Below, piece after piece: positions 38,436 through 50,520 of a stretch of 64,000 nt of DNA. Numbering within the stretch: the stretch's first letter is position 1; every line of letters begins with the position of its first letter. Below the pieces are notes generated by a model. That model ran no database searches. It was not told where the DNA came from and worked only from the letters and a program-made list of their open reading frames with translations. The position numbers were made by a program, and so were the translations under genes. The stretch comes from an uncultured archaeon (lineage in GTDB: Archaea > Asgardarchaeota > Lokiarchaeia > Sigyniarchaeales > SOKP01), in contig CAZBPC010000005.1 in assembly GCA_964493715.1 (NCBI GenBank), positions 1 through 64,000 of the forward strand, given 5' to 3'.

Positions 38436-40256
38436 TTAGGCTCTAAACATTATTCCTAACGATTCCTTGAGAATATTTTCCTTTAAATTTCTAATCTGTT
38501 CAAAATCTTCATTTGGAATAGAAATGTTGAGATTGTGAAATTTTTTTAAAACTTCTTCAAAATGATAAATGTCCAATTTAAAACCCTTTTCTAAGAGAGA
38601 TTTTCCCTCTTTATAAAGGATAAGAATTAATTTAATTAAAGCTAATAACTTTTTATGGTCTGTAAACATATCTATTTTTTCATAAGCATTTTGAATTAAA
38701 AAGCAATTTCTAATTAATCTTGCCATAAAAAGATTTAATTTTTGATTTTCTGTTAGATCTAAATCTCCCGTTAATTGCAGGACTAATTTAAATTCATTTT
38801 CATGAGATAAAATTTCATCTACTTGTTTTCGACATTCAAACCAATCCAGATTCATGTTATCCCATTGGAAATTTCTTTCTTCCCACCATTTTACCAGATA
38901 TTCAGGATAATTTGAATACGAGTTAAGCCAGTCGATAGCAGGATAATGTTTTAAATATGCCAATTTAGGATCTAATGCCCAAATACCTTGAACCACTCGT
39001 TTAGTTGCTGCTGTGACTGGTTCATTAAAATCACCTCCAGGAGGTGATATTGAACTAATTATCGTTAAAGAACCAATTCTATCTTTACCAGAAAGGTCAG
39101 ATCCCAGAGATTTAACAACACCAGCTCGTTCATAGAAACTCGAAAGTTTTGATGATAAATATGCGGGATATCCTTCTTCTGCAGGCATTTCCTCAAGTAA
39201 GCTGGAAATTTCTCTTAATGATTCTGCCCATCTTGAAGTACTATCTGCTACAATCGCAACATCATATCCCATATCTCTATAATATTCAGCAATGGTAATC
39301 CCTGAAAATAAGCTTGCTTCTCGTGCAGAAACTGGCATATTTGAAGTATTCACAATAAGAATTACATGATCCAAAATAGGCTGACCTGTTCTAAGATCCA
39401 AATTCTCGGAAAATTCCTTTAAGACATGAGCAATTTCATTACCAGGTTCACCACATCCTATAAACACAATAATATCCGCATTGCAATACTTAGCGATAGA
39501 TTCTTGGAGAATTGTTTTCCCCGTGCCAAATCCTCCAGGGATTGCAAATGTTCCTCCTTTTGCTATAGGAAATAATAAGTCAATTATTCTTATTCCTGTA
39601 AGTAATGGTTCTGAAGGATCAATCTTTTTCGTAAAAGGTCTAGCTTTAGAAATTTGGCTTTTTGTTAACATGCAAAAAGATTCCTCTTCTTGATTAATTT
39701 TAATTCGATATATATTATCGATTATGGTATAATCACCTTCATTTGCAATATATGACAATTTACCAAAAGCATTATAAGGTGCCATAATTTTATGGTCTAT
39801 TACGGGAGTTTCGGTTACAATTCCAATTAAATCTCCACCAATGATTTCTTCATCTATTTTTTTTTTTGGAATAAAATGCCATTTTTTTTTTCTGGAAAGT
39901 GATGGAAATTTCATTCCTCTTTTTAATTCACCTCCCTCAAATTTTTCAAAAGTTGTTTCTAATGGTCTCTGAATACCATCAAATACATGAGATAATAAAC
40001 CTGGAGCTAACTCCATAGAGAGAGGTTCTCCCAAATTTATAACTTCTTCATTTAATCTTAAATTGTACGTATTTTCAAAACATTGAGCTATTACATGATC
40101 TTTATAAATTTGAATAACTTCACTTAAAATATTAAACCGGGAAATTTTAATTAAATCATATAATCTTGTTTGATTTCCTAATCCTTTAATCTCAATCAAA
40201 GATCCATTTACAGCGGAGATATAACCCCGAATAGATCCTTTTTCTAATTCCGTCAT
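38436..40256 (-). CDS. atpA: Second A/V-type ATPase subunit A paralog (GCGEPGNE variant)
   Basis: [40 protein letters not shown]. Confidence 0.9.
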   Translation of the reverse strand: MTELEKGSIRGYISAVNGSLIEIKGLGNQTRLYDLIKISRFNILSEVIQIYKDHVIAQCFENTYNLRLNEEVINLGEPLSMELAPGLLSHVFDGIQRPLETTFEKFEGGELKRGMKFPSLSRKKKWHFIPKKKIDEEIIGGDLIGIVTETPVIDHKIMAPYNAFGKLSYIANEGDYTIIDNIYRIKINQEEESFCMLTKSQISKARPFTKKIDPSEPLLTGIRIIDLLFPIAKGGTFAIPGGFGTGKTILQESIAKYCNADIIVFIGCGEPGNEIAHVLKEFSENLDLRTGQPILDHVILIVNTSNMPVSAREASLFSGITIAEYYRDMGYDVAIVADSTSRWAESLREISSLLEEMPAEEGYPAYLSSKLSSFYERAGVVKSLGSDLSGKDRIGSLTIISSISPPGGDFNEPVTAATKRVVQGIWALDPKLAYLKHYPAIDWLNSYSNYPEYLVKWWEERNFQWDNMNLDWFECRKQVDEILSHENEFKLVLQLTGDLDLTENQKLNLFMARLIRNCFLIQNAYEKIDMFTDHKKLLALIKLILILYKEGKSLLEKGFKLDIYHFEEVLKKFHNLNISIPNEDFEQIRNLKENILKESLGIMFRA

Positions 40257-40306
40257 ATTTTTAATCTTTTTTAGTCAATGATATAATATAAATTAGTTTA
40301 TATTCA

Positions 40307-40720
40307 TTAAGATATTAGTGATTCTCCACAATTCGGACATTTCTTAGCAAAATGAGGCAATAAAATTCCACAATTTGAACATTTTCGAACAATTGGTTTT
40401 TTATATTTTGAATCCAGCTGAATATGATCAATCCTTCTTATATGATGGGTTTCAAACTCCTTTAGATATTTCTCTTTCTCATTCTGCTCTTTATATCTTT
40501 TACGTTTAAATAAGGTGAAAATTTCCTTACCCTTAAATAATATACCAATAAATAATAGAAAAGAAAAAAAGACTATTAGCAGAGCGAGTGGATGAGAACT
40601 TCCAAGATTTATCAAGCTATTATAGAAATAAAAAATAAATATCGTAAAAATTATTAATAGACTTAATTGGAAAATAAGTTTTGGAGATTTCTTTTTTGGT
40701 CTTTCTATTTCACTTGTCAT
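40307..40720 (-). CDS. Two-TM membrane protein with C-terminal zinc ribbon
   Basis: Two hydrophobic helices, CSNC...CPNC. Confidence 0.75.
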   Translation of the reverse strand: MTSEIERPKKKSPKLIFQLSLLIIFTIFIFYFYNSLINLGSSHPLALLIVFFSFLLFIGILFKGKEIFTLFKRKRYKEQNEKEKYLKEFETHHIRRIDHIQLDSKYKKPIVRKCSNCGILLPHFAKKCPNCGESLIS

Positions 40721-40746: not shown

Positions 40747-43041
40747 TTAAAAATATTTTGAAGAAATATAGTTTCTTGCATCTTCAATACTCTCCCGTGT
40801 TTCTTCCGTTTCAATCTCTCTTTCTATGGTACTAGAGATAAGATCCTTCTCCGTGTCCATTTTAAATGTAATAGTAGAATAGTTTTCATCTAAAATAAAA
40901 GGAATAAATGTTTTACCCCTCCCTTCATAAAATTTAAAGAAGAATTCATAAAAGTGCAACCTAATTGCGTTTATAAAAACAAGAACCCCCTCTAAAAGTA
41001 TTACTAGAATATTTCCAAGTATCAATGATAGCATGACAACAATTTGTATAAATATACCTTGGCCAGGAATTATTGAAATCAAAGCTTGAATCGCGACCAA
41101 TAAAGATACATGTGTTAACGCTAAAGCTAGCAACCTTATATATGAGAGTGTATTACTCAATACCGATAAAACCGTCTCAAACGTATCCATCGATCCCTTT
41201 CCAATTAATTCCATGAAGGACTCTTTCTTTAAATAAGAGATCCCTAATAACTTACCAATAGGTTTAAAGAGGATTAACATTATAGCAGGGATTAGAGGGA
41301 GTAAAATAGGCGGAAGAGGAGATGCAAGCCATGCTTTAAGATTAATTCCCCATGTTGTAATTAGAAGGATACCCATATCTAAAAATAACATTTTCATTAA
41401 AGTTTCCGTAAATGCAGTATATTTTTTAGACCCTTTCCACAAATTTACAAATTGTATTGACCAACCAAGATTTATATGAACAATCCCGATAAAGATAGTT
41501 AAAAAAAAGATTGCCATCACATTATTTAATGGATCATACAAATTTATATATCCTATAAAGGGAATCGGTATTGGAATAGGATTAAGATGATATCCAAAAA
41601 TTTCTTCATATCCAAAAAATTCACCGTACAAGAATCCTCCTAAAATAGCCCACCAACCACACCAAAAAATGATCCAACAAAAATTACGAAGATCACCTTC
41701 TCGTTTTCTAAAAAGTATCCCACCTACAAGTCCTGATATTATCAAAATCATTCCATGTCCGATATCTCCAAACATAATTCCAAATAATAAAGGAAATGTA
41801 ATGAATAAAAATGTGGTTGGATCGATTTCGGAATAACTAGGTGTTCCGTACATTTTTGTTAGCGTTTCAAAAGGTCTTATTATACGATTATGCATCATCA
41901 GGGTTGGTGTTTCCCCTTTAAAAGTATTATCCACCGTTTCTTTTGATGATTCTTTATCTTTAGCGCTTTTTTTTGATCGCTCTTTCTTAGGTTTTTTTTT
42001 TAACGCCTTATCTTTAATATCTTGATCCCTTGTTACTTTTCCACCTTTAGCGATGTTTAACACTTCATATGTTATTTTATCATGAAAAAGATCATCCAAC
42101 TTTCTTTTTAATTCATCTTTTTTAGATTGAAGAACAAAAAATTTATAACTTAAGCGATTTAATGATAGTTCTTCAAATTGACTACTTACCCAACTATATT
42201 CTTCAAGATTTGATATTCCTTCTTCTATTGCTGCAAACTTTAATAAGTTTTTATCTCTAATTCTTTTTAATTCATTTTCATATTTTTTTAAGTAATTATT
42301 GATTAGTTCAAGTTCATTATTAATTCTTTCAAAATTAATCCCTGTTGGTGTTAAGAATTTCTTCAGTAATGGTACAAGCTCTCCATGGATTACACTAATT
42401 TTTTCTCTTAATTGGTCTTTTTTTTCCTTTGGGTAGATTATAAAAAAAGCAGTCCTGTCATTCGATATTGTTTGAGTCTGAATTACACTTGGAAATTCAG
42501 AAAATTCGAAGATATCATTTATTATACTCAAATTTTTTGTATAGGTTGTAAAAATCCTAAAGTTAAAATAAGTTAAATTAGTAAGATTCTCGCGTGATAT
42601 GTCATAATTTTCAAGAAAATGATATGTTTTTTCCAGATTATTCATTTTTTCTAATTCAATTTTTGTTGTTGATGAATATCTTTCTAATTCATTGAAACGA
42701 TTTGTATAAAAATTAATCTCTTCAGAAAAATAATTTATTAAAGCATGTGAGTCTTTTGCAACGAAATTAATTCTTTCTTCTTTTTTAATGTTTAATGCTT
42801 GAAAATCAAGTTCAGTAATATTTAATTTTTGTAATAACGTTTCAAAATTAAGTCTTAAATTCTTGAGTTTATCTTTAAATATTTCATCTTCTTCATTTTT
42901 TATTGTTGATTGGTATTCTCCTTTTTCCCTTATATGAGCTAATTTAAATTCAGCAAGACTAGTTAAAAGAAGATCTTTATAATCTTTATTGATTATTAAT
43001 TTAAATAGAGACATCTCGTTACCAAATTTCATCTTTATCAC
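40747..43041 (-). CDS. atpI: A/V-type ATP synthase subunit I (a)
   Basis: YGTPSYSEIDPT, FGIMFGDIGHG, SYIRLLAL essential Arg, RLHFYEFF. Confidence 0.95.
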   Translation of the reverse strand: MIKMKFGNEMSLFKLIINKDYKDLLLTSLAEFKLAHIREKGEYQSTIKNEEDEIFKDKLKNLRLNFETLLQKLNITELDFQALNIKKEERINFVAKDSHALINYFSEEINFYTNRFNELERYSSTTKIELEKMNNLEKTYHFLENYDISRENLTNLTYFNFRIFTTYTKNLSIINDIFEFSEFPSVIQTQTISNDRTAFFIIYPKEKKDQLREKISVIHGELVPLLKKFLTPTGINFERINNELELINNYLKKYENELKRIRDKNLLKFAAIEEGISNLEEYSWVSSQFEELSLNRLSYKFFVLQSKKDELKRKLDDLFHDKITYEVLNIAKGGKVTRDQDIKDKALKKKPKKERSKKSAKDKESSKETVDNTFKGETPTLMMHNRIIRPFETLTKMYGTPSYSEIDPTTFLFITFPLLFGIMFGDIGHGMILIISGLVGGILFRKREGDLRNFCWIIFWCGWWAILGGFLYGEFFGYEEIFGYHLNPIPIPIPFIGYINLYDPLNNVMAIFFLTIFIGIVHINLGWSIQFVNLWKGSKKYTAFTETLMKMLFLDMGILLITTWGINLKAWLASPLPPILLPLIPAIMLILFKPIGKLLGISYLKKESFMELIGKGSMDTFETVLSVLSNTLSYIRLLALALTHVSLLVAIQALISIIPGQGIFIQIVVMLSLILGNILVILLEGVLVFINAIRLHFYEFFFKFYEGRGKTFIPFILDENYSTITFKMDTEKDLISSTIEREIETEETRESIEDARNYISSKYF

Positions 43042-43058: not shown

Positions 43059-43691
43059 TTAATCTTTAATCAAACTTTTAGTTTTTTTTAATCTAATAAA
43101 ATTTTCTCTGTCAAGTTCCTCTAAAATCTCTTTAATAATCTTAATATCTGATTCTAATTGGGGTTTGATAACATTCTTCAATCCGTTTATTCTTCGGCTA
43201 ATTTTTTTAAAATTAAATGCAAGGCTTAAAAGAACAGCTTCTTTTTCAGCATATAAAATAAGATATTTGAAAAAATCTTTTAAATAAATAATTAAGTCAT
43301 CAAGATGATGACTTGTATTTTGAAAAGAATAAGGAGGGAGTTGCTTTTCTTGAACTAATTCATATTCTATGGATGGTAATAAAATACCTATATCCTTCTT
43401 ATATATTATATCTATAAATGGTTGAAATTGAATTTGACTAATTTGATTTATTATATTAATTTCTCGCTTTCCCATTTCTTTATAGGTTTCATTTAAAGCT
43501 AATAAAGCTAATTTATATGATTTATAAAGATGATTTTGATAAATTTTATATTCTATCCAAAGATTCTTGATTTGATTTATTAATTGTTCTTGTTTATATT
43601 CTAAAAAATTCTTTCCTTTAATTACAAAATCTAATTTTTTCTTAAGGAAAATTAGATTAGTCTTTGTAGGTTGTAATTTCCTAAAACTTAT
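43059..43691 (-). CDS. atpD: A/V-type ATP synthase subunit D, about 210 aa with a non-canonical ATA (or ATC at 43694) start
   Basis: Frame open upstream of the called ATG, encoding SFRKLQPTKTNLIFLKKKL..KGKNFLEYK; C-terminal RRINGLKNV..P, LEELDRENFIRLKK. Confidence 0.9.
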   Translation of the reverse strand: MSFRKLQPTKTNLIFLKKKLDFVIKGKNFLEYKQEQLINQIKNLWIEYKIYQNHLYKSYKLALLALNETYKEMGKREINIINQISQIQFQPFIDIIYKKDIGILLPSIEYELVQEKQLPPYSFQNTSHHLDDLIIYLKDFFKYLILYAEKEAVLLSLAFNFKKISRRINGLKNVIKPQLESDIKIIKEILEELDRENFIRLKKTKSLIKD

Positions 43692-43694
43692 GAT

Positions 43695-45086
43695 TTACAC
43701 CTCTTTTGGGTAGTATTTATCAATATATTCTTGATGAATCCTATATAATTGATTTTTTGGGAGATTAGATAATACTTCCCAACTTATTGTTAGTGTTTTA
43801 ATAAAATCCCGATTTTCATGAAATCCTTGATTTAAAAATTTTTTTTCAAAATCTTCTCCAAATTGTAATAACGCTTTTTGTTCTAAATTTAGACTATCCT
43901 CTCCTACTATTGATATTAAATCTCTTACTTCTAAAGCACTAGAATAAGAGGCAAGCAACTGAGAACTAACATCAGCATGATCTTCTCTTGTTGTCTCTTT
44001 ACCTATGGAATCTTTCATCAAACGTGATATAGAGGCCAAAACTTCAAAAGGGGGATATATTCCTCTTTTTTGGAAACTACGACTAAGAACCAATTGTCCT
44101 TCAGTAATATATCCTGTAGTATCGGGTATTGGATGCGAAATATCATCATTTGGCATAGTCAAAATTGGGATTTGTGTTATCGATCCTTTTTTACCCTTTA
44201 TTACTCCCGTTCTTTCATAAATAGAAGCAAAATTAGAATATAAGTATCCAGGATATCCTTTTCTACTTGGAATCTCTTCTTTAGCTGAACTTAATTCTCT
44301 TAAGGCTTCGGCATAGTTAGTCATATCAATTAAAATAACAAGTACATGCATATCTTCTTCAAAAGCAAAATATTCTGCTGTTGTTAATGCCACATTTGGA
44401 ATTAATAACCGCTCCATCACGGGATCGTCAGCAAAATTGATAAAAGAAATGATATTTTGGATATTTCCACTTTCTTGAAAACGGTTCATAAAATAAATTG
44501 CTTCATCTTGAATAATCCCAATTCCACAAAAAATTATCAAAAAGGGTTCTTCCGTTAAAACTTTTGCTTGCGTTACAATTTGGGCCGCTAATTTCCCATG
44601 GGAAAGACCTTGTCCACTAAAAATAGGAAGTTTTTGACCTCGAATTAATGTGAATAACCCATCAATAACCGAAATCCCCGTTTGTATTACTTGTGAAGGA
44701 TACTGCCTAGCAAATGGATTTATTGGAATGCTATTAATATCTTTTTCTATATCAGTTAAAATATCTATATTCAGCAATTTTTTTGTAAAGATATCAATAG
44801 GCTTTCCTAAGGAGTTAAAAACACCTCCCAACATATCTTTTGAGATTTTTATTTTAAATGTATCATTAGTGAAAATAATTTGTGAACTATCTGAAGACAT
44901 TCCTTTTGTATCTTCAAAAACTTCAACAACAATTAATTCCTTACTTATTTTTACTACTTGACCAAGTCGATTTTCTTGTTCTTTTGTATGAATTTCAACG
45001 ATTTCCCCATATTGCACGTTATGTTTATTTTCAATAAACAATAAAGGTCCGATTATTTGTTTAATATTAGTATAGCTTATACTCAT
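43695..45086 (-). CDS. atpB: A/V-type ATP synthase subunit B
   Basis: [49 protein letters not shown]. Confidence 0.96.
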
Positions 45087-46924
45087 TTTTCTTTCATCGT
45101 TCTATATGATATTTGTAGTTCAAAAATTTCACTTAATAATTTATCTTTTAATTTTTCAATTTTAGAAAATTCATTATTTGGAATAGAATTACTAATTCTT
45201 AATATCTCATCTATAACTTTAAGATCTTTAACTTCTTCAATTATAATTCCTTTACTTAAGAGCTCTTTAGCTTTTGTATATAATAAAAGAATTAATTTTA
45301 TTAGCCCCAATAATTTTTTGGAATCGGTAAAATTATCTATAACATCAAAAGCATTTTGAATCAAGAACCCTTCCTTTATTAATTTAGCACAAAATAGAAT
45401 AAGTTGCTGATCTTCTGGTAAATTTTCTTCTCCGATTAATTGAGTTATATTTTTTAAATCATTTTCAACTGATAAAATTTCATTTACTTGATTTCGACAT
45501 TCATTCCAATCGAGATTTAGCTCTGACCAGTAAATATCTCTTTTATGCCACCACTCAGAAATATATTCAGGATAATTAGAGTAGGAATCAAGCCAATTTA
45601 AAGCAGGGTAATGTTTTGCATAAGCAAGCCTTGCATCTAATGCCCAAAAAGCTTGTACAAAACGTTTGGTAGTCGCGGTAACTGGTTCACTAAAGTCTCC
45701 AGAAGGTGGTGAAACAGAACCAATGATTGTTAAAGATCCGATACGTTCTTCATTTGAAATATTTCCTCCTAGCGGGTAAACAACACCAGCCCTTTCGTAG
45801 AAACTTGATAGCTTTGAAGGTAAATACGCGGGATATCCTTCTTCAGCTGGCATTTCCTCAAGCAAGCCTGAAATTTCTCTTAAAGACTCAGCCCATCTTG
45901 ACGTACTATCCGCCATAAGAGCCACATCATAACCCATATCTCTATAATATTCAGCTATTGTAATTCCCGAAAAAATACTTGCTTCACGAGCAGATACGGG
46001 CATATTGGACGTGTTTGCTATCATTACAACTCTCTCCAATAACGGACGATCAGTTTTAGGATCAATAATTTTAGCAAATTCTTTTAGACTATCTGCTATT
46101 TCATTTCCTCTCTCTCCACAACCTACGAAAATGATAACATCTGCATCACACCATTTAGCCAAAGATTGTTGAATTACGGTTTTACCCGTTCCAAATCCTC
46201 CTGGAACTGCTACTGTGCCTCCTTTAGCTATAGGAAAGAGTAAATCAATTATACGTGTCCCTGTAATCAGAGGTTCAATGGGACTGATCTTTCTTTTAAA
46301 CGGTCTGCTTTTTGTAACTGACCATTTTTGAATCATATTAAATGATTTTTCTTCAGATTCACTTTTTAATCTATAAATTTCATCAACAATCAAATAGTCT
46401 CCTTCTTCTACAATATAAGTCAAATTTCCAGAGACCATAGGAGGTACTGATATGTAATGTTTTATTGAAGGCGTTTCTTGGACTACTCCAATTATATCAC
46501 CCCCCTTAATATCAATATCGGGTTTTAATAAAGGTACAAAATGCCATTTCTTTGTTCTTGATAATGAGGGTAATTCTACACCTCTCTTCAAGAAACTTGT
46601 GTTTTCAAGGTGCTCTAATATTTTTTCTAAAGGTCTTTGAATCCCATCATAAATACTGGATAATAACCCAGGACCTAATTCCATAGATAAAGGTTCTCCT
46701 AAATTAATAATTTCTTCATTTAATCTTATATTATTTGTATTTTCATAGCACTGAACAATTGTTCGATTAGCATAAATTTGAATAACTTCTCCTAATATAT
46801 TTTGGGTAGCAATCTTAACTAAATCATGAAGCCGAATATTTTGTTCTAATCCTTTGATTTCAATTAAGGAACCATTAATTGCAGAAATATATCCAGTTCG
46901 ATTATCTTTATGTGATTTACTCAT
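45083..46924 (-). CDS. atpA: A/V-type ATP synthase subunit A (canonical copy)
   Basis: [41 protein letters not shown]. Confidence 0.96.
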
Positions 46925-47642
46925 AATTTTTTATATATTCTTCTATATCATTTTTCTTTAATTGAATAAATTTTACTAAACTATCATCTAATTCTTTATA
47001 ACCTAAATCAGAAATTAGCTTAGAGAATTCTATTTCAATATCAACATAATTTTTATTTACTAATGTCTCAAGAGTATAATCATAAGAAATTAGTGCCTGA
47101 GGCAGATTTACATTAAATCCACCAATAATCTCCTTAGAATCTTGTTTAATTATAACTGAATTTTTAAAATTCTTTTCAATTTTATTAAGATCTTTACTAA
47201 AATAATTGTAATCTTTAGAATTTAAAAGTATGACAATATCTCCTTTGTTATCTATGTCATTTCTTATACTATGCATAAATTTTAAAAAAAACGCGATATA
47301 AGCCGAATAATTTTTGTTAATTTTTTCTTTAATTCTTTCATAAATAGTGAATTTTAAGTCATTTAACAATTCATTCTTTAAACTTATTATTTTCTCTTTA
47401 GATTTTAAAAGAGCAGATGTTAAATTATTATTAAAAAATTGTGTGTATGTTTCGATGAAAATAGTTTTGATCTTATTAGATCCCTCGATTTTTTTCTCTA
47501 AATATTCTTTTCTAATTTCAGCCTTTTGAAATAATGTTCTCCTGTGAATATCTTTGATTTCTTGTTGAGCTTTATCTATCATATAAATTCCTAATGCTCC
47601 AACGGACTTTTTTAAATCTGACTCTTCTGAAATATTAATCAC
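46917..47642 (-). CDS. atpE: A/V-type ATP synthase subunit E
   Basis: N-terminal coiled coil, IIGGF...YDYTLE; operon position. Confidence 0.85.
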   Translation of the reverse strand: MINISEESDLKKSVGALGIYMIDKAQQEIKDIHRRTLFQKAEIRKEYLEKKIEGSNKIKTIFIETYTQFFNNNLTSALLKSKEKIISLKNELLNDLKFTIYERIKEKINKNYSAYIAFFLKFMHSIRNDIDNKGDIVILLNSKDYNYFSKDLNKIEKNFKNSVIIKQDSKEIIGGFNVNLPQALISYDYTLETLVNKNYVDIEIEFSKLISDLGYKELDDSLVKFIQLKKNDIEEYIKNYE

Positions 47643-47968
47643 TCTTTTAAACTTAATATTTTTCCAATCGATTCATATATCTTGTCTAAGAAAAGATCTT
47701 TAGGTATAACATCTAAATTAAAAATTTCTGGAAGATAAAAGATAAACGGTTTTCTTTTGTTTAACTTAAAATTAAGCAAGAAATCTTCACTATCACTTGG
47801 TAATTTTAACGAAATGATTATCATATCAATTGAAGGCTTTTTGATTAAATTGGAAAATTCTTTCTGAAAATCATCACTTTCCTTAATAACAGTTCCCTCT
47901 ATCCCTAACAAACCTAACATTGAAACGATGTAATCATACCCTAATACATGGATTTTTTGTTCAGACAC
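47639..47968 (-). CDS. atpF: A/V-type ATP synthase subunit F
   Basis: KIHVLG...LGLLGIEG; size and position. Confidence 0.85.
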   Translation of the reverse strand: MSEQKIHVLGYDYIVSMLGLLGIEGTVIKESDDFQKEFSNLIKKPSIDMIIISLKLPSDSEDFLLNFKLNKRKPFIFYLPEIFNLDVIPKDLFLDKIYESIGKILSLKE

Positions 47969-48288
47969 TAAAAATCATATCCTAATTTTTCTAAACTTAT
48001 TTCTATTAATTTATCCTTATTTTTTTGATAAACATCTTTTATAAGTTTAATCTCATCATAATCTTTTTTTTCAAAATTTTCTAAATGATCTTGAATATCT
48101 TTTGAAAAGTTTTTTAAAACTAAATCAACAGACTCCTGCTTCTTTTTAAGGATTTCCTCAACTTCTTTTTTTTCAGTATCAATTAAAGATTGAATTTCAG
48201 TAATACTCTCTTCTTTCGCCTTATTAACTAAAGATTCGTATATCTTTTCAATATCATTTAACCATTTAAATAATTCCAAATTTATCAC
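47968..48288 (-). CDS. Probable A/V-type ATP synthase subunit H (G)
   Basis: 106-aa charged helix inside the operon. Confidence 0.7.
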   Translation of the reverse strand: MINLELFKWLNDIEKIYESLVNKAKEESITEIQSLIDTEKKEVEEILKKKQESVDLVLKNFSKDIQDHLENFEKKDYDEIKLIKDVYQKNKDKLIEISLEKLGYDF

Positions 48289-48298
48289 ATTCTATTAG

Positions 48299-49348
48299 TT
48301 AATTTGTCAGTTTTAGTGAATTATAGTTTTTATTTATAATACTTACTACTTTTGGTAATATTTCTAATTTTATCTCTTTTTCTTTCTTTATAATTAATTC
48401 TAAAATACGGTTAATAGTCAAGGATTCTATGTCATCTGTCTTATGCTTAATTTTTGTGAAATAATAATTCTTATACATTCTCTCAAGCTCCCATAAGGGA
48501 TGTTCTAATTCTAAAATGTTAAAGTTATACTTTAATTCGTGAGTTGCTCCTAAATATTCATTAATTTTTGAAAAAAAATCATTTAAGGTTTTTTGATTTA
48601 ATAGATTTTCAATTTCATCCGCTTTTAAAAAGAGATAGTGATTAATGATAAATTGATTTAATAATTTTTTATCAATTTTGTTAATTATACCACGATAGAT
48701 AGTATTGATATTATATATCTCAGTATTAAGGGAATTAAATAAAGAAATCATAGATTTTTCTTTTTCATTTAATATTTTTTCTCGTTTTAATAGATTTTCG
48801 TAATATAATTGGTCCAAGAATGCTTCAAGGACAAAAACTTCATTATAATTTTTAAAATAAAGAAAACCCTCTCTTATTACCCTATTATATTTAGTTGGTT
48901 TCATATATAATTGAATTTCATCTAACGTCTTTACTTCGATAATTTTTTTTATTAAATCTGTGTTTTCTAAATATTCTTCAATTAAAAAATTGACATTTTT
49001 TGATATTTCTTCTTTATTTAGCCCAATAATAAATCCTAATATGATTTGCTTGATATTCATTATCTCATATTTAACTAAATAATCTTTCAAAAAACGCCTC
49101 ATATTTATTGGGGAAATGGAAATTAATTTCCCTATCAGTTTAAAAAAGAAATGGAATAGTGCTTTCTCAATTTCTTCAATACTATTTTCTTTAATATTTA
49201 AATCGGGATAAAACGGCTCGATATAGTTTAGAAATCCTTCAATTTCATTAAAATCTTTTAACTTGTCTAAAGTTTCTTCATCGATGATTAACTGCTTAAG
49301 AGAAGCTATCTTAATGAAGGTGAAATCATAAGATGGAACCGTTATCAT
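48299..49348 (-). CDS. atpC: A/V-type ATP synthase subunit C (d)
   Basis: KYEIMNIK, LEAFLDQLYY, EIYNI...RG; size about 350 aa. Confidence 0.85.
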   Translation of the reverse strand: MITVPSYDFTFIKIASLKQLIIDEETLDKLKDFNEIEGFLNYIEPFYPDLNIKENSIEEIEKALFHFFFKLIGKLISISPINMRRFLKDYLVKYEIMNIKQIILGFIIGLNKEEISKNVNFLIEEYLENTDLIKKIIEVKTLDEIQLYMKPTKYNRVIREGFLYFKNYNEVFVLEAFLDQLYYENLLKREKILNEKEKSMISLFNSLNTEIYNINTIYRGIINKIDKKLLNQFIINHYLFLKADEIENLLNQKTLNDFFSKINEYLGATHELKYNFNILELEHPLWELERMYKNYYFTKIKHKTDDIESLTINRILELIIKKEKEIKLEILPKVVSIINKNYNSLKLTN

Positions 49349-49383: not shown

Positions 49384-49767
49384 CTACGAATAAGGGGGGG
49401 TTGGGATTTTTGTCCATAACAATATTCCAATAATTAATCCATATATTGCTAACGCTTCTCCTAAAGCTACTACTAAAAATGCTTTAAAAAAATACTCTTC
49501 CCTCTCTGTCAATGCGGCTATAGCAGATGTTCCCATACTTTTTAAAGCTATACCACTCCCTAATACCGCTAAACCAACAGCTAATGCTGAAGCGATCGCT
49601 AATGACCCTGCTGTTGAAGATGAATAATAATCTATTGCGTCAGATGGAGTTTGGGCAACTACTGATGTAATCAAGCCATTTACGGAAAAAAACACAACTA
49701 ATACTAAAAATATTTGGTAAAATCCAATTAATAAATAAAATTTTTGTTTACCATTCAAATCTTTCAC
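49384..49767 (-). CDS. atpK: A/V-type ATP synthase proteolipid K (c), single hairpin plus N-terminal hydrophobic leader
   Basis: ALAVGLAVLGSGIA, VALGEALAIYG ion-binding Glu. Confidence 0.92.
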   Translation of the reverse strand: MKDLNGKQKFYLLIGFYQIFLVLVVFFSVNGLITSVVAQTPSDAIDYYSSSTAGSLAIASALAVGLAVLGSGIALKSMGTSAIAALTEREEYFFKAFLVVALGEALAIYGLIIGILLWTKIPTPPYS

Positions 49768-49884: not shown

Positions 49885-50520
49885 TCAATGGTACAATAAA
49901 ACACGAATTAGATCGGCTATATCATGTATTCGATCTGCTAGTTGTTCCAATAATACTATACTATCTCTCAACCTTAACAAAGATCTAATATTAATTTCCT
50001 CATTAGAATACAAATATTCTAAGAATTTTCTATAGATTCTATCAATTTCATTTTCCAATTCGTGTATCTCTGTCGTATTATTGAATACTGCTGTTTTATT
50101 ATCCCTTAAGTTCTTAATAGTGGTTTTTAAAACATCAGTCATCTGAATTATTATATTAATTAGATTATGATATTTTTTACTGACTTCCTTCTTTATTTTT
50201 TGGCTTAACTCTATTTTAGGCAACATATCTACAAATTCTAGTGGATAGTCAATTACAGCATCCATCTTTAATATTAAATCAATATAATCACCGTAGCCAG
50301 CTCCGACTTCAGAATATCCTTGTATTATTTGAATTTTTATTTCATCTGCTTCTTCTTCAAGCATCTGCATTTTATTTCTTTTCTTTTCAAGATTCTTATC
50401 TTGATCTTCAGTCCAAAAATTATAATATACAGCCATATCGCTAATTACATTATATATGATACGAGAATGTTCAATCAGTAAAGAAATTATTTCTTCTTTT
50501 ATTTTGCTATTTATTGCCAT
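49885..50520 (-). CDS. DUF47 / PhoU-like phosphate transport regulator
   Basis: LEEEADEIK, IHELENEIDRIYR, LEQLADRIHDIAD. Confidence 0.85.
   Translation of the reverse strand: MAINSKIKEEIISLLIEHSRIIYNVISDMAVYYNFWTEDQDKNLEKKRNKMQMLEEEADEIKIQIIQGYSEVGAGYGDYIDLILKMDAVIDYPLEFVDMLPKIELSQKIKKEVSKKYHNLINIIIQMTDVLKTTIKNLRDNKTAVFNNTTEIHELENEIDRIYRKFLEYLYSNEEINIRSLLRLRDSIVLLEQLADRIHDIADLIRVLLYH

Follow-up and report, generated by a model that had tools for sequence, protein, structure and literature searches.

We analysed a window of 64,000 nucleotides, the whole of positions 1-64,000 of contig CAZBPC010000005.1 (assembly GCA_964493715.1), from an uncultured archaeon (Asgardarchaeota; Lokiarchaeia; Sigyniarchaeales; SOKP01). 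Between ~50.5 kb and 38.4 kb its minus strand carries the genes of an A-type ATPase as one co-oriented run, in the order K-C-H-F-E-A-B-D-I-Zn-A′, where A is the canonical A subunit, Zn is a Zn-ribbon membrane protein and A′ is our name for a second A subunit of the same operon, the subject of this work. Past A′ the run is bounded by a convergent gene for a tRNA-splicing endonuclease (EndA). The features of the run are the following (lengths in amino acids, aa).

38436-40256, minus strand: A′, the second A subunit (606 aa), with P-loop GGFGTGKT at residues 241-248, catalytic Glu270, Pro271 and the Walker-B region ADSTSRWAE
39444-39446, minus strand: codon CCT of Pro271, at the site of the phosphate-binding Arg in canonical A
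40307-40720, minus strand: Zn-ribbon membrane protein (137 aa) with two hydrophobic helices and a C-terminal CxxC...CxxC, from its open reading frame, weak Pfam matches and Cys conservation
40747-43041, minus strand: subunit I, the a-type stator/ion-channel subunit (764 aa; PF01496)
43059-43694, minus strand: subunit D, central stalk, its frame open for 211 aa from the B stop
43695-45086, minus strand: subunit B, non-catalytic (463 aa)
45083-46924, minus strand: canonical catalytic subunit A (613 aa, GCGERGNE)
46917-47642, minus strand: subunit E, assigned by operon position alone (no Pfam match)
47639-47968, minus strand: subunit F
47968-48288, minus strand: probable H/G-type stalk subunit of 106 aa, assigned by operon position alone (no Pfam match)
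48299-49348, minus strand: subunit C/d
49384-49767, minus strand: K/c proteolipid
49885-50520, minus strand: DUF47/PhoU-like gene, just 5′ of the ATPase operon

We compared A′ with canonical A. The two proteins align end to end, with 383 of 609 positions identical (63%) and 3 gap positions, and share four Pfam domains (PF02874, PF16886, PF00006 and PF22919), all of them above cut-off in A′, which bears out the original observation of a full-length, collinear A paralogue within the same gene run. Identity between A′ and A ranged from 58 to 65% across the genomes compared. A′ scored 691.9 bits against NF003220 (A/V-type subunit A; cut-off 470) and 680.9 against the equivalog TIGR01043 (cut-off 972), below which this genome's canonical A also falls (775.4). 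Its score against the subunit B model NF003235 was 122.8 bits, versus a cut-off of 349, and it is 33% identical to B over residues 206-450; with its P-loop intact, A′ does not fit the B type in sequence. An AlphaFold2 model of A′ (predicted local distance difference test 83.5, predicted template modelling score 0.87) matched solved A chains from Enterococcus hirae, Thermus thermophilus and eukaryotes in Foldseek with TM-scores of 0.82-0.93.

One difference from A lies at the catalytic site. A′ keeps the P-loop GFGTGKT and the Glu of GCGE, and where canonical A reads GCGERGNE, A′ reads GCGEPGNE, so that both motif and codon are as first described. The replaced residue was said to be the phosphate-binding Arg, and two comparisons agree: Pro271 is aligned with R264 of Pyrococcus horikoshii A (phmmer against 3M4Y, E-value 3.7e-163), and it stands 24 residues past the P-loop Lys, the same spacing as Lys238-Arg262 in E. 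hirae A. In the model Pro271 occupies a loop between a strand (262-268) and a helix (274-284), so the fold should tolerate a Pro there.

To place this change we searched 60 related genomes at the protein level and compared 40 operon stretches. In most genomes of the same genus a second A copy follows ~6.7 kb downstream of the first. All 24 downstream A′ copies, among them the window's own and one truncated where its contig stops, carry GCGEPGNE, and all 37 canonical A, four distant ones included, carry GCGERGNE. Because the copies were found by overall similarity, the 24/24 count is independent of the motif. A codon-blind DNA scan of the genus (41 genomes) gave 66 matches, 26 with Pro and 40 with Arg codons and none with any other; in the family (133 genomes) only Arg or Pro codons occurred among the matches listed, while matches outside that listing may repeat genus ones already counted. 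A family-wide protein search added six motif-variant A′ missed by the exact pattern, all with Pro: ACGEPGNE in G110, G113 and G114, CCGEPGSE in G147, and CCGEPGNE in G082 and G083. Among 72 distinct A′ the Pro codon was CCT in 39, CCA in 23, CCG in 6 and CCC in 4, a set gathered with a Pro-requiring pattern and hence a measure of synonymous turnover, not of invariance.

The Pro is thus not a private mutation, being present in every A′ examined. Nor is it a sequencing error: contigs of other sequencing runs (X2, X3, X4 and X5) cover the region of the codon with no difference among those listed, and together with the 24/24 count and the codon turnover they rule out an assembly or sequencing artefact as its source. 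Reading frames are likewise sound, with no stop or frameshift in the 24 A′ (23 full-length, one ended by its contig) or in the further matches listed.

The remainder of A′ is conserved, with a few changes of its own. The P-loop is GFGTGKT in all 24 copies, with GFGTGKS in three copies of other genomes, and the Glu preceding the Pro is present in all A′ examined. All 24 A′ preserve 114 of the 141 positions that are invariant in the 37 A, and the only ones fully switched are R272P, the change of the Arg itself, and I317L. The Asp six residues past the lost Arg has become Asn in 21/24 (D278N), two positions near the active site are partly relaxed (T341I in 17/24, R298H in 9/24), and other A′-specific changes cluster at 404-431 without adding Arg or Lys. 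A surface loop, 100-118, bears a signature of A′: a one-residue deletion in 24/24, Phe111 replaced by Arg or Lys in 15/24 and Leu118 by Phe in 23/24. A further change once listed for A′, from QKW to TKS, is real in the window's copy and does not hold as an A′ trait, as the Q is kept in 22/24 and the W in 19/24.

To trace the origin of A′ we took 117 distinct sequences, dropped rows at least 80% identical to a kept row, which left 62, and built a tree with IQ-TREE (LG+C20, short search). All 35 A′ fell on one side of a single branch (Shimodaira-Hasegawa-like approximate likelihood ratio test 99) with a short stem (0.10), and the clade includes both copies of genus g23, which are unlinked to the operon. 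Support for the backbone among A sequences was weak, and the duplication is therefore dated no finer than within or at the base of the family. Selection was measured by pairwise Nei-Gojobori comparison in 20 genomes that have both genes. The ratio of non-synonymous to synonymous divergence (omega), from the 45 closest of 190 pairs, was 0.08-0.19 for A′ and 0.06-0.16 for A, and the median dN(A′)/dN(A) over all 190 pairs was 1.27. By domain, divergence among A′ relative to A was 1.13 in the N-terminal barrel, 1.07 in the bulge domain, 1.41 in the nucleotide-binding domain and 1.33 in the C-terminal domain. A′ is under purifying selection in all four domains, has a single origin and has been lost patchily; the description of it as an intact paralogue, and the dN/dS comparison that had been proposed for it, both come out in its favour. 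Its sequences mark it as a vertically inherited paralogue of A, kept by selection in one family of Promethearchaeota (Loki-type Asgard archaea).

These data also bear on the explanation that A′ is a decaying or neutral duplicate, or its Pro an artefact. Repeated loss of A′ would fit decay. The 24 copies without stops or frameshifts, the omega of ~0.1, the Pro kept through synonymous turnover and the other-run contigs without a listed difference all speak against the pair, and we regard it as vanishingly improbable; neutral decay as such is excluded by omega and the intact frames.

We then asked how widely A′ occurs. A motif scan of one genome per prokaryote species returned at least 116 motif loci, at least 71 of which hold A′. 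In all 71 A′ loci of the stored 116, to the extent that each stretch allows, EndA-Memo-coiled-coil-PfkB comes after the gene or I and Zn come before it, and these loci have titles of archaeal metagenome-assembled genomes (48 among the 80 titles listed). The other 45 stored loci have no ATPase context, and the 32 of them with listed titles are all bacterial. Within the order (152 genomes) the exact pattern was present in 74 genomes, all in the window's family, and in 0/14, 0/1 and 0/4 genomes of the three sister families. Counting the six variant copies, A′ is found in at least 80/133 family genomes, compared with 0/19 in the sister families, and is distributed among genera as follows.

g1: 26/41 genomes
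g28: 45/53 genomes
g18: 3/5 genomes
g23: 2/2 genomes
g25: 1/1 genome
g27: 2/10 genomes
g21: 1/6 genomes

A link between A′ and the type of c subunit was considered and rejected, as K sequences are alike with and without A′.

We next considered what loss of the Arg would do. We take Arg-182 of the Escherichia coli F1 β subunit to be the GER arginine, going by the motif. According to a review of E. coli work, in its mutants R182Q and R182K ATP synthesis is absent, binding of inorganic phosphate (Pi) is abolished, and the ATPase of purified F1 is 0.020 and 0.250, respectively, against 42 for the wild type; Arg-182 is required for high-affinity binding of MgATP and not of MgADP (PMC3268026). In the E. 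hirae enzyme, Arg262 of A touches the γ-phosphate of AMP-PNP, a contact that it shares with the P-loop Lys and the Arg finger of B (PMC5095293). A′ retains the nucleotide-binding parts of A (P-loop, Walker-B region and catalytic Glu) and what it needs to fold like A, and its site, lacking the Arg that binds γ-phosphate or Pi, would most likely hold nucleotide and make or split ATP very poorly.

Alternatively, A′ might be a competent catalytic isoform in which another residue or an altered mechanism makes up for the Arg. The P-loop, catalytic Glu and Walker-B region are kept, and F1 catalysis is robust to loss of a single residue (PMC5380711). However, no basic residue has been gained near the site (the changes there are R272P, D278N, I317L and the cluster at 404-431), and the new Arg or Lys at position 111 is in a distant surface loop. 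Furthermore, in E. coli the equivalent changes, even that to Lys, abolish ATP synthesis and Pi binding (PMC3268026), and sites beside the catalytic one are partly relaxed (T341I in 17/24, R298H in 9/24). We therefore hold a compensated isoform to be decidedly unlikely.

Where A′ acts is suggested by its partners and by the spread of constraint. As had been noted, this assembly has only one B gene: a whole-assembly search with A′ returned, besides A′ and A, one B-like match, in an assembly that is 100% complete by markers. The operon likewise has a single D and a single I gene. Given these single partners, A′ is most simply read as occupying A positions in the head, beside B and around the D stalk. 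In solved enzymes the N-terminal barrel forms the crown and the C-terminal domain faces the stalk. That A′ is a near-inactive subunit occupying A positions in an A3B3 head is, on balance, the explanation we consider probable. We infer its assembly with B, its loss of catalysis and its physiological role, the assembly into the ring from the domain-wide constraint; loss of ATP synthesis and hydrolysis is predicted by analogy with the β R182 mutants.

Rotary hydrolysis works through three sites in turn, so one phosphate-blind site should slow or stall ATP-driven rotation. A head containing A′ would then have its ATP-driven reverse rotation throttled, whereas rotation driven by the ion gradient could pass the A′ site with fewer ATP made per turn. 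The physiological pay-off may be a brake, a gear change or parked complexes.

The gear change calls for A′ in a defined position, giving A2A′1B3 heads that make two ATP per turn and not three. In archaeal A-type synthases three A-B pairs share two peripheral stalks, which makes one A position unique; with its own conserved surface loop, A′ could fill such a position. We give this version a small chance. If it is true, the higher ion/ATP ratio would let ATP be made at very low membrane potential, as in cells that live by syntrophy and are starved of energy, reverse rotation driven by ATP would in addition stall at the phosphate-blind site, and A′ would represent a third class of head subunit, with stoichiometry tuned at the head rather than at the c-ring.

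Parked complexes would arise if A′ formed its own A′3B3 heads, plugged so that ATP is neither made nor burned, as a reserve or hibernating pool or as a seal on Ao. The conservation evidence is the same for such heads as for mixed ones; the single B gene would supply one B pool to both kinds, and the distinct conserved loop of A′ could favour self-sorting. Evidence of self-sorting, on the other hand, is lacking, mixing is made plausible by the 58-65% identity of A′ and A and by the conservation of their interface-rich domains, and a fully inactive complex would be costly to an energy-limited cell. Separate A′ heads are, in our judgement, improbable.

Several observations weigh against a near-inactive subunit of the head. 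A′ is dispensable: six genomes of the same genus without it keep the operon and its flanks. At least six genomes of the genus truly lack it, having the endonuclease gene directly after I-Zn on a contig without a break, and the tree of A sequences, with 24 present and 6 absent states, implies at least three gains or losses within the genus. In genera g19, g20, g22, g24, g26 and g29, some of whose genomes are incomplete, neither the DNA pattern nor protein queries returned A′. In two g28 genomes an unrelated gene of 342-349 aa takes the place of A′ between the Zn-ribbon and endonuclease genes (L196 13332-14378 in G099; L197 4299-5324 in G103), and tblastn gave no A′ remnant at these two loci. 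In g23, A′ is intact and lies on another contig, away from the operon (L219 9072-10925 in G083; L220 1154-3031 in G082), among hydrolase, glycosidase and transporter genes, a location that fits a head subunit and an independent role equally. On the biochemical side, alanine mutants of other key catalytic residues of F1 still rotate, 1,000 to 10,000 times slower (PMC5380711), which makes 'nearly idle' a safer description of A′ than 'dead'. Finally, the strictness of the Pro, where any non-Arg residue might have served, hints at a positive requirement beyond simple loss of function.

The neighbours common to both g23 copies are an alpha/beta hydrolase, an ATC-hydrolase-like protein and a GH3 glycosidase, with a RING-finger protein nearby in one of them. 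A seeming split operon in G109, with E-A-B-D and I-Zn-A′ 860 kb apart, was set aside as a possible misassembly, because subunit C was not found there with the window's protein and the genome is 90% complete.

The same facts raise the question of whether A′ works outside the ATP synthase head, alone or with other partners, for instance in sensing ADP/ATP, in helping B or the head to assemble, or as a homo-oligomeric protein resembling an ATPase. This would suit the g23 copies (2/2 genomes), whose neighbours, away from the operon, are hydrolase, glycosidase and transporter genes, the conserved surface features that A′ has to itself in loop 100-118, and its dispensability in many relatives. Against it, all four domains, the N-terminal barrel and C-terminal domain included, are nearly as constrained as in A, 114/141 A-invariant positions are untouched, A′ is followed by EndA or preceded by Zn and I in all 71 A′ loci of the stored 116, and no new domain or partner gene accompanies it. 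We consider a function away from the head unlikely, and retain a near-inactive subunit in A positions as the preferred reading.

A link between the Zn-ribbon protein and A′ had been implied. Its own identity is indicated by Pfam matches below curated cut-offs (19.6 bits versus 25) and by four Cys invariant in 24/24 orthologues from several genera. The link to A′ did not survive comparison: all the family operons examined have the gene after I, those of six A′-less genomes of the same genus among them, and a profile of the orthologues matched in 126/132 family genomes, among them those of genera in which A′ was not found. In sister-family genomes (for example G054, G053 and G052) weaker full-length matches occur ~4.3 kb downstream of A, which is the expected place of the gene after I. 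Being present without A′ and in a sister family, the protein is older than A′ and independent of it; from its sequence and gene order, it is apparently an order-wide companion of the membrane sector rather than an A′-specific partner, and may have an accessory role or help in assembly. In one subclade of the genus this protein carries a second C-terminal CxxC...CxxC ribbon, and one public cluster member bears the source label 'ribosomal protein L32', probably a zinc-ribbon mislabel. The gap between the Zn-ribbon gene and A′ is 50 nucleotides and contains a TATA-like stretch; as the genes nearly abut or overlap in several relatives, we claim no separate A′ promoter. A promoter and terminator scan gave 83 sites versus 80.2 expected, with a bacterial sigma-70 consensus that is uninformative for an archaeon.

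Some further features of these operons were observed. The DUF47/PhoU-like gene lies upstream of the operon in most related loci too; in G023, G010 and G021 it is on the A′ side, as if the operon had been inverted between its flanking genes. Subunit D has no ATG, GTG or TTG at its conserved N-terminus, its frame beginning ATC ATA AGT TTT right after the B stop, and a listing of standard-start open reading frames gives it as a truncated frame of 138 aa. Some relatives have ATG AGT TTT at this point and many have ATT or ATA AGT TTT, so it seems that in this lineage the gene commonly initiates at AUU/AUA or is tightly coupled to B. A different A-type operon is present in two congeneric genomes, at L069 (G008) and L070 (G031), with an A that is 46% identical, the order A-B-D-C, K and I on the opposite strand, and a K with a doubled hairpin. 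In G031 it adjoins the same endonuclease and Memo genes, and it seems to have supplanted the native operon at that locus. Canonical A reaches ~1,150 aa in some relatives (L197 10169-13639 in G103 and L199 10098-13556 in G078; also G045 and G057); open frames of 1,137 and 1,124 aa give matches split in two, and an intein in A is the simplest explanation. No such insertion occurred among the A′ examined. G026 (L056, C307) has a third A gene, of the Arg type, on another contig, with neither Zn-ribbon nor A′ detected in that operon stretch, and this could come from a second strain or from contamination (6% in that bin).

Descriptions of rotary ATPases give them two kinds of head subunit, catalytic and non-catalytic, fixed before the last universal common ancestor. 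The present data suggest that an Asgard family maintains a third kind, a young and strongly selected copy of the catalytic subunit without the phosphate-binding Arg. To our knowledge no dedicated inhibitor protein has been described for an archaeal ATP synthase. If A′ enters the head, it would be a natural experiment in mixed-site rotary catalysis and could be a new form of regulation of archaeal ATP synthase, for instance by preventing futile ATP hydrolysis or by altering how many ATP each turn yields, in organisms living near the thermodynamic limit.

We compared A′ with known systems. A literature search gave no description of a second A subunit or of an A subunit with an Arg-to-Pro change, though supplementary files could list such paralogues, and the accessible portions of two papers on ATP synthase evolution (10.64898/2026.10.01.756066 and PMC10656485) contain no mention of such a second A. 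Public A′ cluster members are without a name, and matches in the ESM Atlas were confined to unnamed Promethearchaeota clusters and generic zinc-ribbon ones. The A/V-type subunits A (AtpA/NtpA) of P. horikoshii (1VDZ/3M4Y), E. hirae (3VR2-3VR6) and T. thermophilus (6QUM/7VAI) resemble A′ in length, domains, P-loop, Glu, Walker-B region and fold. They differ in that the GER Arg (R264 in P. horikoshii, R262 in E. hirae) is Pro in every A′, that the Asp six residues later is mostly Asn (21/24), and that the A′ gene is an extra copy beside canonical A. By sequence, architecture and predicted fold, A′ is a member of the A-subunit family in which one catalytic feature, the phosphate-binding Arg, is missing: an Arg-less paralogue.

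The E. coli F1 β mutants R182Q and R182K presumably lack the same Arg. Their ATPase is lower by ~170- to 2,100-fold (PMC3268026), but they are engineered, F-type and changed in all three β subunits at once, whereas A′ is natural, carries Pro and is encoded beside a wild-type A gene.

A natural parallel may be the NeqA-NeqB core of Nanoarchaeum equitans ('a unique ATP synthase'), an A/B head that is reportedly inactive. The A′ model superposed on its structures 5BN3 and 5BN4 with TM-scores of 0.86 and 0.92-0.93. In N. equitans, a reduced symbiont, the sole A subunit is affected, whereas here the normal A is kept and the altered copy is extra.

The ancient catalytic/non-catalytic pairs, A/B and β/α, likewise involve a duplicated head subunit whose fold and ring position persisted although catalysis was lost. 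However, B no longer has a P-loop and takes fixed positions alternating with those of A, whereas A′ keeps its P-loop and is only 33% identical to B, so that A′ would compete for A positions and not for those of B. Unlike the ancient pairs, A′ is confined to one family and can be lost. A′ could be a third, much younger instance of the same route, and may shed light on how the division into catalytic and non-catalytic subunits first came about.

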